Sequence record: PQ330092
Reading direction: 5' to 3' (one strand)
DNA from: Escherichia phage JP4
Length of the DNA: 64,000 nt
The position numbers and the translations under genes were made by a program. Within the stretch, counting starts at the first letter, position 1. Each line of letters begins with the position of its first letter. The notes beneath the pieces are model-generated. The model made no database searches. It was given only the letters and a program-made list of their open reading frames with translations, and had not been told where the DNA came from. Shown here piece after piece: positions 9,232 through 37,789 of this stretch.

Positions 9232-9474
9232 ATGAAAGTACTGACAGAACTAGAAATGTATCATAGATTTAATAAGTACTATCATTTACTTAAGCCTATA
9301 CAGAGGATTAAATGTCCATTTGAAGAGAAACAGGTTTTAATCTATGAGCACAAGTTCTTTGTATCATTAGGTACAGATCAACAAGAGTACTATTTGACGT
9401 TGTACTTGATTACATTAATAGATTTAATTCACTATAAAACCAAACAAGCTAATAAAGAGAAATATGAAAACTAA
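9232..9474 (+). CDS. family A paralog
   Basis: SLGTDQQEYYL; start placed at ATG 9232 (MKVLTELEMY). Confidence 0.65.
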   Translation: MKVLTELEMYHRFNKYYHLLKPIQRIKCPFEEKQVLIYEHKFFVSLGTDQQEYYLTLYLITLIDLIHYKTKQANKEKYEN

Positions 9475-9808
9475 TATACAACTCAAGGTATATAAATCAT
9501 TTGAACATACATATATCAAAAGTAGTCTATGTAGAGATGTAATGGATTACAAGGGTAAGCCATTCACAATTACCTATGATTCTTATGTTAGTGATTTATA
9601 TATATCATTTGTTAATTACGAAAATAAAATATACAAGCACGTTGATATTAAAGATTTAAGTACTTTATCACCAGAGGAATACTTTCAGGAATCATTAGTA
9701 TGGGATTTAGAGTTTCCTATGCCATTAGTACATAAGATGATAGTACTAATGAAAGAATCTAAACAGGAGCCTAATGGTGATTATGAAGAACACACAGTTG
9801 AGTATTAA
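9464..9808 (+). CDS. family B paralog (FQxS-motif protein)
   Basis: core EEYFQESLVWD. Confidence 0.75.
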   Translation: MKTNIQLKVYKSFEHTYIKSSLCRDVMDYKGKPFTITYDSYVSDLYISFVNYENKIYKHVDIKDLSTLSPEEYFQESLVWDLEFPMPLVHKMIVLMKESKQEPNGDYEEHTVEY

Positions 9809-10178
9809 AAGTACTGATAATATTAAGAGTTATACAAGCTCAAGTACTGTGACAATCGAAGTGAATTCTCTTAATGCTGGTAATACAGTAGATAAGTTCT
9901 TTATTGCTCAAGGGTACAGGAAAGATATTCATCAATATTGTTCAGTATATGGGGAGTACAATAGTACTGAAGATATAATTTATTGGTCAACACATCAAGA
10001 TTATATAACTAAAATTGGCGTTCCAGATGTTAGTACTTTATCTGAAGAAGAATACTTTCAGTACAGCTTAGTACATGATGTACCTATACCTTTAGGGTTA
10101 ATCAAGGGTATACAGGAAGAGGTTCATAAGCTTAAATCCATGAGTAAAGGTACTTTCATTAGAACAGTGCAGTACTAG
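9774..10178 (+). CDS. family B paralog
   Basis: EEYFQYSLVHD; start uncertain (9774 or 9783). Confidence 0.7.
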   Translation: MVIMKNTQLSIKSTDNIKSYTSSSTVTIEVNSLNAGNTVDKFFIAQGYRKDIHQYCSVYGEYNSTEDIIYWSTHQDYITKIGVPDVSTLSEEEYFQYSLVHDVPIPLGLIKGIQEEVHKLKSMSKGTFIRTVQY

Positions 10179-10179
10179 C

Positions 10180-10208
10180 TTGACAGAACTTTTCATTACT
10201 GATATAGT
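10180..10208 (+). promoter_or_regulatory. promoter TTGACA-17-TATAGT
   Basis: -35 10180-10185, -10 10203-10208. Confidence 0.55.
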
Positions 10209-10237
10209 ACACTAACGTTAATCATAGGGTAAAAATT

Positions 10238-10483
10238 ATGTTAAATTTTTTAAATTTTCTTATCGTCTTGTGTATTGTTCTTGGGATTGCACCATTTGTA
10301 TTGTATTTCATGGATTCAGATGAAATGCAAAAGATGAATTGCACAAGGACAGGACAGAGTAGAGTAGAGACGATTCTTATGCCTGTTACGGTTATTGTTA
10401 ATAATATGCCCATTACCAACATGGTCCCTACCCTAACGACAACGTACCAGTACTCTTGTGCTGACGGAGAGAGGTGGAGATGA
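10238..10483 (+). CDS. small membrane protein (81 aa)
   Basis: hydrophobic N-terminal helix FLNFLIVLCIVLGIAPFVLYF. Confidence 0.55.
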   Translation: MLNFLNFLIVLCIVLGIAPFVLYFMDSDEMQKMNCTRTGQSRVETILMPVTVIVNNMPITNMVPTLTTTYQYSCADGERWR

Positions 10484-34940: not shown

Positions 34941-35514
34941 AGAAATTGAAAGTAAATTAAAGTACTTCAAAGATATCAAACTTCTTTGGAAAAAGTATAA
35001 AGTTGATTACAATTTCAGTGATGATGAGACAATAAAATACATTGAGATTAATATCAAAATCAAGTTCAAGAATAATAATTATGGTGAAGTAACCTTAAAT
35101 CATACTGGTATATCACTCAAGGACTATGATGGTACAACACTCGCATATTTTGACTTCACACCAGAACCAGGTGAAACACTACTTAGTGAGATAAATTCCT
35201 ATGACATGGAAGTGTTCGGCGGGAATCCGTTACTGTTCCGACTTTCTGAAGAGTGGAGTGAAGAGTACTACACTTACAAAGATGGTGTAGTACTTGACAT
35301 TCATGGAGAAGTTGTGAATGACTTGGAAGAACGTTTGTTCCAAGAATTGTGTGTTTCAAATACTTCATATGCATACAATCATATCCTTGACATGTTTGAT
35401 TTATATAGTAAAATAGATGCTGAAATGAAGGCACATGGTATTCATTACCTTACAATTAACGACTATGCTCAACTCGAAACCGCTGTGAAAGCATTGACTA
35501 AAGTACTGAAATAG
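34930..35514 (+). CDS. family B-like paralog
   Basis: ERLFQELCVSN. Confidence 0.65.
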   Translation: MDFKEIESKLKYFKDIKLLWKKYKVDYNFSDDETIKYIEINIKIKFKNNNYGEVTLNHTGISLKDYDGTTLAYFDFTPEPGETLLSEINSYDMEVFGGNPLLFRLSEEWSEEYYTYKDGVVLDIHGEVVNDLEERLFQELCVSNTSYAYNHILDMFDLYSKIDAEMKAHGIHYLTINDYAQLETAVKALTKVLK

Positions 35515-35523
35515 GAATGAAAT

Positions 35524-35937
35524 ATGAAACTGTATCATGCGAGTACTGTAAAAATTGATAACTTTTATATCCCGTATGGTGGTCTTCATATGGGAGGTAA
35601 ACACAGTGCTTTGGAAGCTGCATTACGCAAGCTGAGAAGCCCACTGAACGTAGTAGACGCATGTACAGTATACTTGCATACCTTAGAAGTTGATGTTGAT
35701 AACGTGCTTCTGTGTGAAGATTTAGGCAGTGATGATGAGTGGCGTTCACTTATTGAGAATTGCACTGCTCAAGGTTATGATGCTGTTCAGTACAAAAATG
35801 ATTACGAGCCAGACAATGTTCCTAGCTTTATGATTTGGGATGCATCTAAAGTTCGCATCATTGAAGTTGATGCTATGCATATGGATGAAGCTGAAATGAT
35901 TATCGAAGATTTTCTTGATGAATATGAAGGTGTATAA
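35524..35937 (+). CDS. hypothetical acidic protein (137 aa)
   Basis: ATG ORF; N-terminus MKLYHAS... Confidence 0.65.
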   Translation: MKLYHASTVKIDNFYIPYGGLHMGGKHSALEAALRKLRSPLNVVDACTVYLHTLEVDVDNVLLCEDLGSDDEWRSLIENCTAQGYDAVQYKNDYEPDNVPSFMIWDASKVRIIEVDAMHMDEAEMIIEDFLDEYEGV

Positions 35938-36473
35938 TGACTGACCCGATGGTAGCACTGGCACGTACTAAGTTACTATTAAAGATTGGTGAGATTTTTA
36001 CGGTTCTTCTGTCCAATAATATTGATATTACTGAGCTAGATATTAAGCAACCGTGGGAAGTGACTATGTTCTCGGCGTTCCACCGATTGTCATATAAAGG
36101 TGAAAGTGTTCTTGATTTTAACCCTAAAGCAAAATTCATAGATTATGCTGCGTTGTACAGAGAGTTGCACCGAAATATTTATTCCGGTTGTATAACCAAT
36201 AACTTCAAAGAAATTAAAGTTCAAACTGCATCACATGAGTTCAATGATTTACTTTATCCAGAATTTAATCTAACGGAAGAATTACTCTTTCAGTACTCGT
36301 TAATTCTCACAAATCTCGAAACGCTAGAGTACTACAAAGAGTTAGTAGATATTTTTATGAATACACGACTTTCAAAAGATATTGTGATATTCTGGTATAC
36401 AGAGCATGTTACGGAGGAATTGCTTACTGAATTTCTTCTAAATATGACAGCTATAAAGGAGAAGTTATGTTAG
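35937..36473 (+). CDS. family B paralog
   Basis: EELLFQYSLILT. Confidence 0.75.
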   Translation: MTDPMVALARTKLLLKIGEIFTVLLSNNIDITELDIKQPWEVTMFSAFHRLSYKGESVLDFNPKAKFIDYAALYRELHRNIYSGCITNNFKEIKVQTASHEFNDLLYPEFNLTEELLFQYSLILTNLETLEYYKELVDIFMNTRLSKDIVIFWYTEHVTEELLTEFLLNMTAIKEKLC

Positions 36474-36940
36474 ATATTTTAGGAAACATCGATACTGCAA
36501 ATTATTTTATCCAGGACGCACTGTTCAATACAGTTCAACAAGGATTAGAAGTTCGTCATAACGTTTACCAAGGTGATGGTTATTTCGTTGATATTGTTGA
36601 GGCACGAAAGAATACGTTTAATGTTAACATTACAACACTGGGTAGACAGAACATTGCACGAATTTTAGTAAGTAAAGATGAAATTGTATTGAGATACAGT
36701 GCTAAGTTTATGTTGACTTATAAGAAAAAAACTGATATGTTCAGTACTAATTTATTTGATGAGCCATTTGACCTTGAAGATATTGAAGCTACTTTCTTTA
36801 CTCAAAGTACTATGGTAAAATACACTGATGTTCAATTTTCTGCTGATGTAATGTCGGAAACATTACAAATGATCAAGGTATTATTTTATGCATTTGAGCA
36901 ATTTAGAGAAGAAAGAAACAAGGTTAACAACCACAGATGA
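36467..36940 (+). CDS. family B-like paralog
   Basis: EATFFTQSTMVK. Confidence 0.6.
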   Translation: MLDILGNIDTANYFIQDALFNTVQQGLEVRHNVYQGDGYFVDIVEARKNTFNVNITTLGRQNIARILVSKDEIVLRYSAKFMLTYKKKTDMFSTNLFDEPFDLEDIEATFFTQSTMVKYTDVQFSADVMSETLQMIKVLFYAFEQFREERNKVNNHR

Positions 36941-37301
36941 ACTAATAGAGGCGATCACTAAGGAGTCAAAATATCACAAAGGGATTCGTCTATATTTTAT
37001 AGATATTGGTTCAATGGAAGGCATATACATTTATGGTTCACAATCTTTATCTTATGATGTAATGCCAAAAAAACATGTAAAAATCTTTTTAGGTTCAGAT
37101 AAAAAAACTTTCTTGACAATTAATGATAAAAACGTTATTATGAATTCGTTGGGTCATGATAAGGTGGAAATTGATCTAAACACACTGGAGGATATTGATT
37201 TTTTTCAATACGAGTGTTTAGGTGTTGACTTACATGGCATTAGTAGCGATATGATAAAATCATTAATCAAATATTTCGAAGGTGTTCATAAATGTATCTA
37301 A
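36888..37301 (+). CDS. family B-like paralog
   Basis: DIDFFQYECLGVD; start uncertain (52-nt overlap). Confidence 0.55.
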   Translation: MHLSNLEKKETRLTTTDELIEAITKESKYHKGIRLYFIDIGSMEGIYIYGSQSLSYDVMPKKHVKIFLGSDKKTFLTINDKNVIMNSLGHDKVEIDLNTLEDIDFFQYECLGVDLHGISSDMIKSLIKYFEGVHKCI

Positions 37302-37789
37302 CTAAATCAATGAAAAATTCATTTGATAAAATCAAGAGTTGTCTTGATGGGGAAAATATTACAAGTGTTACACAAACTGCTGACCAAATTCAAAGCAGTT
37401 CAAGTGATTGTACTGTTATTTTAGGTTTACATAGTCTACGTTTATCAATAGTAAATAATATTGACAACACTGCTATTGTAATCACACCATGCCATATTCA
37501 AAATGAGAATGGTGTATATCTTCATCACATGGGAACAGTATTTCATATTTTCAATACAAACGAAAACATTGTTAAGGAATACAAATCTCTTAATATTGAT
37601 TCAGGTGAATTATTTCAAATGAGTACTTTGTACTCATGTAATTTTACAGATACTTCATGTATTTTGCCATTTTTCTTGGAAATTATTAAGAAAATGGAAA
37701 ATTTAAAACGTGAATACAATAAAGAAATGGTTCCTGAAGCTATATTAAATATTACTAATGCTATAGAGAAGTATAATGCAGTGACTTAA
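37292..37789 (+). CDS. family B paralog
   Basis: GELFQMSTLYS. Confidence 0.7.
   Translation: MYLTKSMKNSFDKIKSCLDGENITSVTQTADQIQSSSSDCTVILGLHSLRLSIVNNIDNTAIVITPCHIQNENGVYLHHMGTVFHIFNTNENIVKEYKSLNIDSGELFQMSTLYSCNFTDTSCILPFFLEIIKKMENLKREYNKEMVPEAILNITNAIEKYNAVT

Follow-up and report, generated by a model that had tools for sequence, protein, structure and literature searches.

An array of at least 42 paralogous genes in Escherichia phage JP4 defines a family of small alpha/beta proteins of RaK2-like jumbo phages

Several large viruses carry long tandem runs of diverged paralogs beside a genome terminus. The MGF110, MGF360 and MGF505 families of African swine fever virus (ASFV), like the terminal gene families of poxviruses, encode small non-structural proteins with a role in host range and immune evasion, and their copy number varies between strains. 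Among phages, the host-takeover module of SPO1 and the pre-early genes of T5 consist of many small genes at or beside the terminal redundancy, with strong host-type promoters. Here we analyze a 64,000-nucleotide stretch of Escherichia phage JP4 (sequence record PQ330092; hereafter the window), in which positions 9464-37789 are a tandem array of at least 42, and probably 44-48, paralogous genes that we call family B. Family B belongs with the lineage-specific multigene families of large viruses that lie beside the genome terminus. It resembles the ASFV and poxvirus families in its long tandem organization, its small non-structural products, its position and its variation in copy number between strains, but it has no sequence or fold relationship to them, its host is bacterial, and it lies just inside of the terminal repeat rather than within it. 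With the SPO1 and T5 modules it shares a cluster adjacent to the terminal repeat and predicted sigma-70-type promoters (21 near-consensus sites on the coding strand); those modules, however, comprise mostly unrelated genes inside the repeat, whereas here a family of at least 42 paralogs and a second family of 32 copies (family A) are found just beyond it. A survey of 224 jumbo phages (Iyer et al. 2021, PMC7824862) highlighted an expansion of about 35 Zn-ribbon copies in Bacillus phage G, which it called 'unprecedented', and did not highlight family B. Both are lineage-specific expansions of one small domain in a jumbo phage, but family B differs in fold, having no conserved Cys or His, reaches a higher copy number (42-48) and is shared by several phage lineages.

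The array was delimited with a profile hidden Markov model (HMM) that was seeded with 39 open reading frames (ORFs) carrying a core of the FQ-x-S type, iterated, and searched against all window ORFs of at least 40 residues on both strands, using a cutoff of E<1e-3. The search matched 42 + strand ORFs between 9464 and 37789 (E from 6e-8 to 2e-20) and no minus-strand ORF, and it converged at the next iteration. These paralogs are mutually only 15-25% identical, and across their aligned C-terminal halves, where mean column identity is 14%, one Phe and one Gln are the sole invariant columns. The core consensus is [S/T]-E-E-x-[L/Y/F]-F-Q-x-S-[L/T]-[V/I/L]-[Y/H/W/F]-[D/N]; the Ser that follows Phe-Gln is common rather than invariant, yet nearly every position is constrained along 13 residues, which is more than one face of a helix. 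The pattern FQ.[SNQ][LTCMF][VILMT] occurs in 40 of the 205 + strand ORFs, where residue shuffling would give 0.56 (and never more than 3 in 500 shuffles); none of the 145 minus-strand ORFs contains it. At the conserved sites Phe is encoded by TTT in 21 members and TTC in 21, Gln by CAG in 24 and CAA in 18, and Ser by all six of its codons. Since synonymous codons are freely used, the constraint lies on the protein and not on the DNA, and a motif acting at the DNA or RNA level was rejected. The members range from about 100 to 207 residues, have a median isoelectric point (pI) of 4.96 (range 4.05-9.07) and a median net charge of -9, and none of the 42 contains a long hydrophobic run suggestive of a membrane segment. 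Their genes are packed tightly in an operon-like manner, with stop and start codons overlapping.

The original prediction, made from the letters of this stretch, was of about 50 paralogs that make up nearly every + strand ORF here and include outlying ORFs at 40496, 48877 and 49452, with a core usually some 50 residues before the C-terminus. The large + strand family with its shared core is confirmed, as is the position of the core, which lies 38-73 residues (typically about 50) from the C-terminus. The total is slightly lower, a realistic estimate being 44 supported members (the 42 HMM members and the ORFs at 28815 and 49452) plus about four borderline candidates (48877, 17169, 34930 and 34338), and members account for 42 of the 67 non-nested + strand ORFs of at least 60 residues in the block and for 20.25 of its 28.3 kb, or about two-thirds, rather than for nearly all. 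As to the outlying ORFs, 49452 is a probable member and 48877 a borderline one, while 40496, together with 24749, 30517, 32229, 36467 and 36888, gained no support as a member from the HMM or from hhalign, being indistinguishable from control ORFs. Single-sequence hhalign did not separate the degenerate candidates from controls, and adding homologs rescued 28815 only. The expectation that family B could not be placed in a characterized phage protein family also held, as searches with the family HMM and of Pfam, NCBIfam, PADLOC and PDB gave no credible match. Neither ten members nor, subsequently, all 30 members of the long form described below produced an above-threshold match in Pfam, NCBIfam or PADLOC, the marginal matches being isolated ones to DUF3741 (E = 9e-4) and PDC-M58A (E = 4.5e-3), each in one of the 30 long members. 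The family profile retrieved no sequence from PDB, and a significant structural match to a solved chain was likewise not found.

Where family B does appear in databases, it appears as itself. A structure search of BFVD returned only its own members, from SP27, RaK2 and 121Q. In PHROGs, each window member matches its own group of unknown function with E-values from 1e-53 to 1e-136 (phrog_9317, 12674, 13866, 19795, 22855, 34516, 34636, 35972 and 37163), and cross-matches between groups are weak; these groups are the same proteins as family B, but split apart, with no function, motif or link between groups recorded. A search of the literature turned up neither an account of the family nor a transcriptome for these genera. 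No description of it is given in the papers on Sharanji, CBB, phAPEC6 and fEgEco12, and the RaK2 genome paper, which reports that about 10% of RaK2 proteins are paralogues, says nothing more on these families. Family B, not described before, is a single family of soluble alpha/beta proteins, small and mostly acidic, that belongs to RaK2-like jumbo phages.

Nucleotide comparison of window positions 9464-22000 with phage records matched 35, all of them jumbo phages of Escherichia or Salmonella that belong to the PBECO4/121Q type (genus Asteriusvirus). The closest covers 99% of this query at 97.8% identity, coverage of the family B block among the 35 records ranges from 72 to 99%, and the genes beneath the matches are nearly all labelled 'hypothetical protein', as is every family B member. 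Several of the close homologs go under the name 'Escherichia coli' in protein records, evidently from whole jumbo-phage genomes filed under bacterial assemblies; the complete RefSeq E. coli genomes contained no family B match. A tblastn search with the family consensus returned only the 35 Asteriusvirus records and missed the RaK2-type phages that the HMM later detected. Likewise, a word-indexed search with the profile of the 42 members reached no further than close relatives of its first sequence, and an exhaustive profile search of 1.84 billion representative proteins was more informative, yielding 87 matches at E<=1e-3. Those listed, false positives aside, are 65-219 residues long; among the 83 listed beyond the first 19, most keep the core; in four no FQ segment resembles it, and a further two differ in the S-E-E context. 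Ten distant matches that were checked by cluster came exclusively from metagenome or raw-read assemblies. At least two matches are false positives, namely P0083, an internal-repeat protein, and P0099, a tetratricopeptide repeat protein (motif EAEGYFQQSLVI, E of about 8e-4 against the family profile) whose likeness is a chance match of one helix, family B having a beta-sheet and no repeated helical hairpins.

Beyond Asteriusvirus, HMM searches revealed three further arrays. Klebsiella phage Muenster (Alcyoneusvirus, RaK2-like) has about 30 members in the 40 kb that follow its terminal repeat, the metagenome contig L003 (DRR865494, 1-12844, 23% GC) has 27 members and six more recognized by motif only in 12.8 kb, and contig L005 (ERR4503900, 28% GC) has 19 members in 20 kb. 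L003 is almost wholly family B, which makes up about 33 of its 36 called genes. Since L005 has no nucleotide similarity to the window and a single short match to Muenster, it represents a different phage lineage with the same arrays. One L005 protein reads FM in place of FQ and is the sole Q-to-M exception among about 120 proteins; because the HMM detected it, members without Gln are detectable and the near-invariance of Gln is not a selection artefact. Family B is thus kept in at least four diverged phage lineages.

Comparison with these relatives shows that the members have been maintained individually. Phage 121Q itself has 42 members and provides positional orthologs, 80-100% identical, for 39 of the 42 in the window, none being found for 9774, 12556 and 13052. 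The ratio of nonsynonymous to synonymous substitution (dN/dS) against 121Q lies mostly between 0.05 and 0.5 for individual members, and the pooled values are 0.38 before the core and 0.32 from the core onward. Eighteen of the 42 members resemble a Muenster protein more closely than they do any other member in the same genome, and 17 are Muenster reciprocal best hits whose order is collinear at the array's right end. This orthology across genera indicates that the array predates the split between Asteriusvirus and Alcyoneusvirus, each paralog having been kept separately, and each is held under its own purifying selection. If the array were instead a neutral or selfish expansion, or a set of mis-called ORFs, copy number would be free to differ between close relatives, as it does; we nevertheless consider this very unlikely, given a dN/dS of about 0.3-0.4 in both halves, retention in several diverged lineages, collinear orthologs between two genera, confident fold predictions and zero motif matches on the minus strand. 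Purifying selection together with retention in at least four diverged lineages means that family B clearly does something.

The array grew through tandem duplication plus some mosaic recombination. Recent tandem clusters comprise five copies at 19945-22245, three copies at 18738-19935 and the pair 11930/12556. Across this pair (window 11924-13110), DNA identity is 85-100% at the ends and 40-50% at the centre, and a stranded duplicate of the 5' end of the next gene adjoins it: a duplication footprint at 12443-12532 on the + strand, consisting of the 3' end of 11930-12484 and the stranded copy of the 5' end of gene 13052, is repeated at 13021-13109 (93-100% identical). Judged from this sequence pattern, the mosaic looks like recombination that used the conserved gene ends as anchors.

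One long and one short member were modelled with AlphaFold2 from paralog-only alignments. The long member (22861-23310, 149 residues) is predicted to be a single domain (predicted local distance difference test, pLDDT, 83.9; predicted template modeling score, pTM, 0.78) in which N-terminal helices are followed by three strands, two short helices, a long helix, a strand and a C-terminal helix. The short member (19220-19579, 119 residues; pLDDT 85.2, pTM 0.81) is likewise a single domain, with five strands, an FQ-bearing helix at residues 66-76, a long helix at 84-100 and a final strand. In both models the variable N-terminal half is the beta-sheet of the same compact alpha/beta fold, and the 10-residue blocks around FQ, which in the long model lies in helix 94-100, have average pLDDT values of 92-97. 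The models accordingly describe two architectural forms. The short one is made up of the sheet, the core helices and a terminal strand, and the long one has in addition helices at the N-terminus and a helix at the C-terminus; 30 of the 42 members are long, and an amphipathic N-terminal helix can be aligned across these 30. The original prediction had pictured a fixed C-terminal module on diversified N-terminal domains. The models do not support this picture: they give one compact fold for a long and a short member, in which the N-terminal half supplies the sheet and so is not a separate domain, and two forms rather than many N-terminal structural classes.

On these models we infer that the core is the structural heart of the fold. 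The S/T-x-x-E segment would act as a capping box that opens the short helix carrying the near-invariant Phe-Gln, and the D/N seven positions on would sit immediately ahead of the next helix and cap it. This second helix, long and strongly hydrophobic, would pack onto the beta-sheet formed by the variable N-terminal half. No column of conserved Cys, His, Lys or Arg is present in the family B alignment, which argues against an enzyme.

The same residues could be conserved for another reason, and this provides the main rival to the function that we favor below. The S-E-E-x-Phi-F-Q-x-S helix could be an exposed docking surface for one partner shared by all members, such as a host hub protein, a phage protease containing ClpP, or a cation, with the variable half selecting cargo, in which case the array would encode adaptors or decoys and not independent inhibitors. 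A polar Gln that is near-invariant and flanked by conserved E, E, S and D in four diverged lineages, with one exception (Q to M) in roughly 120 proteins, would be well explained in this manner, as would a constraint on almost every position of a 13-residue segment that exceeds one helix face, and a ClpP gene is present in the same window (62697-63392; Pfam CLP_protease, E = 4e-41). However, the conserved polar residues occupy the sites expected of helix caps, S/T-x-x-E before the FQ helix and D/N before the next, nowhere is the fold predicted more confidently than in the core region, as would be expected of a structural core, and ClpP, 25 kb distant, is weak evidence. Overall we regard a shared docking surface as unlikely, and a still more specific version, in which an exposed handle plugs each member into a shared machine (a ClpP-based protease or a host hub) while the hypervariable sheet picks a different host or defence protein for each member, giving a library of about 45 targeting adaptors, as improbable. 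On this specific version, each related lineage would possess a comparable library of 20-30 members, and the arrays would amount to a programmable repertoire for neutralization or degradation without a described phage counterpart.

The core also bears a superficial resemblance to the cleavage site of the tobacco etch virus (TEV) and picornavirus 3C proteases (ENLYFQ/S or ENLYFQ/G), with which it shares the string E-x-x-Y-F-Q followed soon by S; one member reads EEGYFQGS. Cutting of all members at E-E-x-Y-F-Q-x-S by one protease is nonetheless extremely unlikely. The residue at P1' varies among E, Y, Q, L, N, G, M and K, so that many members have a bulky or charged side chain there (E, Y, Q, L, K or M) and not the small G, S or A of such sites, with the conserved Ser at P2', five further residues are conserved downstream, and the motif lies in a confidently predicted helix rather than in an exposed flexible linker. 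In addition, no cognate 3C-like protease was seen in the window, where ClpP is present, and the phAPEC6 annotation lists a prohead protease of the T4 type. The variability of P1' and the helical, well-ordered context led us to reject this reading.

The position of the array may bear on its time of expression. The physical ends of the fEgEco12 genome were determined experimentally and its terminal repeat is 20,993 bp (fEgEco12 paper); in the fEgEco12 record the family B genes start at about 27.4 kb. Measured from the left terminal repeat, the array thus starts about 6.3 kb further in, just beyond the repeat and not within it, and the inner edge of the repeat would fall near window position 3,100, where family A begins. 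In Muenster, too, the arrays come after the terminal repeat. GC content falls from about 0.39 to about 0.33 over window positions 1-4000. Positions 1-6000 match 74 phage records, including Campylobacter, Klebsiella and Shigella phages, as against 35 for the array, which implies that some short piece of this region is widely shared.

The window is AT-rich (the array is about 31-35% GC), its long ORFs are nearly all on the + strand, and near-consensus sigma-70 sites (at least 11 of 12 positions) follow the same orientation, with 21 on the + strand and one on the minus strand, where 3.2 +/- 1.6 are expected. This strand bias suggests that host RNA polymerase reads all 64 kb. Intergenic gaps are few within the array, and four of them hold such sites with an extended -10 TG, all on the + strand. 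The predicted promoters are TTGACA-17-TATAGT at 10180-10208, TTGACA-17-TATCAT at 14740-14768 (directly after a terminator-like hairpin at 14702-14723), the perfect consensus TTGACA-18-TATAAT at 26585-26614 and TTTACA-17-TATAAT at 30461-30489. The phAPEC6 paper reports a phage sigma factor, and the abstract of the PA5oct paper states reliance on host RNA polymerase. The phAPEC6 virion proteome (62 proteins) contains none between gp348 and gp548, a family B member being gp442c. Downstream of the array lie a Dam methyltransferase (42592-43113), a T4-type RNA ligase 1 (Rnl1; 50403-51545) and a polynucleotide kinase-phosphatase (PNKP; 52369-53301). These neighbours are counter-defence genes, and Rnl1 with PNKP is the classic repair pair against anticodon-nuclease defence. 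Further downstream are a DNA ligase (59601-61019), two calcineurin-like phosphoesterases and a PTH2-like protein.

The original prediction also suggested a diversified effector repertoire for host takeover or anti-defence. Taken together, the strong predicted sigma-70 promoters, the absence from the phAPEC6 virion proteome, the position beside the terminal repeat, the Dam, Rnl1 and PNKP neighbours and the purifying selection specific to each paralog indirectly make it plausible that family B proteins are such effectors, and we give roughly even weight to the reading that they are early cytoplasmic proteins built on one scaffold and diversified as binders of host or defence proteins. Family B is probably made early in infection, to judge from its promoters and position. 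In this scheme host sigma-70 RNA polymerase would transcribe the array early from DNA just inside of the left terminal repeat, the proteins would remain in the cytoplasm, and each member would bind and neutralize a different host protein, either a target of takeover or a component of defence, through its own variable surface, so that the array would be a repertoire of binders on a single scaffold.

Several points weigh against this reading. The promoter calls are consensus matches only, and absence from one virion proteome is negative evidence. The pooled dN/dS gives no sign of positive selection and hence of an arms race, and the stability of orthologs within the genus fits housekeeping roles as well as effectors. 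That Phe and Gln are buried and that S/T, E and D act as caps is deduced from sequence position and secondary structure and not from coordinates; a functional site common to the members could be another reason for Gln to stay near-invariant at 15-25% identity, alongside conserved E, E, S and D. Finally, some members are basic, with a pI of up to 9.1. DNA-mimic anti-restriction proteins (Ocr, ArdA and Arn) were considered and rejected on the pI range of 4.05-9.07 and the lack of a fold match.

Two other functions were considered. Long tandem paralog arrays of small alpha/beta proteins recall the arrays of SUKH and Imm immunity proteins, and by analogy family B might comprise immunity- or antitoxin-like proteins directed against the toxins of competing phages, mobile elements or bacteria, or might act in superinfection exclusion. 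Although the similarity to SUKH/Imm array organization and the nearby counter-defence genes would suit such a role, the Pfam families SMI1/KNR4, SUKH and Imm are unmatched by family B, no fold match to these superfamilies was obtained, and toxin genes are not adjacent, and we doubt this explanation. We are equally doubtful that the paralogs associate through their conserved core into a non-virion structure or buffer within the cell. Many copies of one fold, a conserved helix that could serve as an interface, and tight operons with overlapping stop and start codons, suggesting coordinated synthesis, are features that an assembly might have, but the paralogs are just 15-25% identical with sheets of variable length, and the separate conservation of each across genera fits distinct roles better.

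The individual members, all on the + strand, are given here with their length in residues, core and E-value against the family HMM. The short-form members lie at 9464-9808 (114, SPEEYFQESLVWD, 3e-14), 9774-10178 (134, SEEEYFQYSLVHD, 1e-13), 10474-10791 (105, QEEELFQYSLVYD, 1e-15), 13052-13363 (103, SDEELFQQQLVID, 3e-14), 19220-19579 (119, DTAELFQESLVFD, 5e-13), 19576-19935 (119, DDGELFQAALVFD, 1e-14), 22242-22556 (104, HESFIFQESLVWD, 6e-11), 25357-25719 (120, QEDELFQESLVWD, 3e-14), 25709-26044 (111, DEGELFQESLVFN, 4e-14), 27581-27943 (120, SEEELFQESTIST, 6e-15) and 27927-28340 (137, TPDELFQYSLVLP, 1e-10). The member at 18738-19223 (DDAALFQEALVFD, 7e-11) is 161 residues long from its first TTG, but this call is probably over-extended and the protein likely of the short form, since its 121Q counterpart is annotated at about 112 residues.

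Long-form members in the left part of the array comprise 11930-12484 (184, DEAGVFQQSLITK, 7e-16), which is the mosaic duplicate of 12556-13062 (168, CSSELFQKSLLYS, 2e-17), followed by 13335-13901 (188, SEEEFFQGSMLVP, 2e-16), 14208-14714 (168, TEEWWFQQNLVHD, 3e-14), 14767-15309 (180, GEDEYFQYSTVHR, 6e-16), 15306-15836 (176, QEEEYFQMQCIHS, 2e-15), 15829-16452 (207, VDAFMFQLSLVHD, 2e-11), 16657-17172 (171, TEESYFQQSLIYS, 2e-13) and 17452-18066 (204, SDESLFQYSTMYD, 7e-11). The recent five-copy cluster opens with 19945-20415 (156, SEEYYFQQSTVYD, 2e-20) and continues with 20417-20887 (156, SEEYYFQQNTIYA, 2e-16), 20884-21327 (147, TEEYYFQQSFIFN, 6e-17), 21327-21815 (162, SEEYYFQNSTLYN, 3e-20) and 21793-22245 (150, SEEYYFQNSTVYD, 3e-18). 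To its right are the modelled member 22861-23310 (TEEGYFQGSTVYE, 5e-16) and those at 23307-23843 (178, FDEQCFQLSCTDP, 5e-09), 24198-24758 (186, TEENIFQNSVLHD, 2e-13), 26004-26588 (194, NQEYYFQLSLLFP, 2e-16), 26648-27124 (158, TEEEFFQYSTVYP, 2e-14), 27121-27615 (164, TEEMYFQESCIHD, 8e-16) and 28328-28831 (167, SEESYFQNSLIYT, 3e-18). The remaining long-form members are 29354-29917 (187, LESAMFQLSLIHN, 2e-14), 29862-30428 (188, TDEVLFQLSTICD, 6e-14), 31080-31664 (194, RDAFIFQKSLLDN, 7e-10), 31651-32229 (192, VEEELFQMSTVIP, 3e-12), 32654-33163 (169, IEEIEFQNNTLSP, 6e-08), 33147-33728 (193, GEEHYFQLSTIHE, 9e-11), 33790-34341 (183, SEEQHFQLSTLHD, 3e-10), 35937-36473 (178, TEELLFQYSLILT, 4e-09) and 37292-37789 (165, DSGELFQMSTLYS, 4e-12), and those at 29354, 35937 and 37292 are among the Muenster reciprocal best hits.

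The additional candidates, also on the + strand, are more diverged. The ORF at 28815-29357 (180 residues) is a divergent family B member whose FQ core has decayed; it was recognized by hhalign (probability 92-96%, E from 5e-7 to 3e-9) with a profile built with its homologs in Muenster, 121Q and contig L005. The probable outlying member at 49452-50141 (229 residues, core SEEEHFQLMMMRA) has E = 3e-4 with a broad-family HMM and an hhalign probability of 75% (E = 2e-5). Borderline candidates are the outlying ORF at 48877-49455 (192 residues, LPEHFQISTLYD; HMM E = 0.024, hhalign E from 5e-4 to 3e-3 with controls at 6e-3 or above) and, within the array, those at 17169-17513 (114 residues, EAARFQYETAYD; HMM E = 0.018 and 1.5e-4, hhalign E = 6e-4), 34930-35514 (194 residues, EERLFQELCVSN; hhalign E from 1e-3 to 2.5e-3) and 34338-34940 (200 residues, with the degenerate core AALMQLSTSEP; hhalign E = 1.7e-3).

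Other small genes surround or interrupt the array. Family A consists of 32 ORFs of about 52-96 residues with an L-G-T-N-Y-Q-E core, of which 28 form one run (3117-9474) just ahead of family B and four are scattered inside it (10775-10987, 10936-11223, 23821-24039 and 24017-24208). It accompanies family B in Muenster (13 matches) and L005 (seven matches) and is absent from the sampled part of L003; the one member searched had no Pfam match. A third tandem family at 44861-47006 comprises six ORFs of about 88-103 residues that match one another with E-values of about 1e-31 to 1e-35. The array's largest gap is occupied, directly downstream of the promoter at 10180, by an 81-residue ORF (10238-10483) with a hydrophobic N-terminal stretch that is likely a small membrane protein. 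A non-family gene embedded in the array (35524-35937) shares 58% identity with gene 123 of Muenster, labelled by its depositors a putative ADP-ribosyltransferase on the basis of an HHpred note. Its product has an L-Y-H-x-S-T ... Y-K-N-x-Y-E pattern, and Pfam and PDB sequence searches were empty, leaving the label unconfirmed.

At 42-48 copies, family B takes up about 8% of the genome, and with family A it accounts for about 75 genes of a roughly 350-kb phage that fall into two undescribed families. Much of the "dark matter" of these jumbo phages is thereby reduced to one tractable problem, a single scaffold with hundreds of natural variants, in which mutagenesis would obviously start from Phe and Gln and the bounds of the variable surface are clear. 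Should the members prove to bind host or defence proteins, the arrays would constitute a natural catalogue of the targets and a ready-made small binding scaffold.

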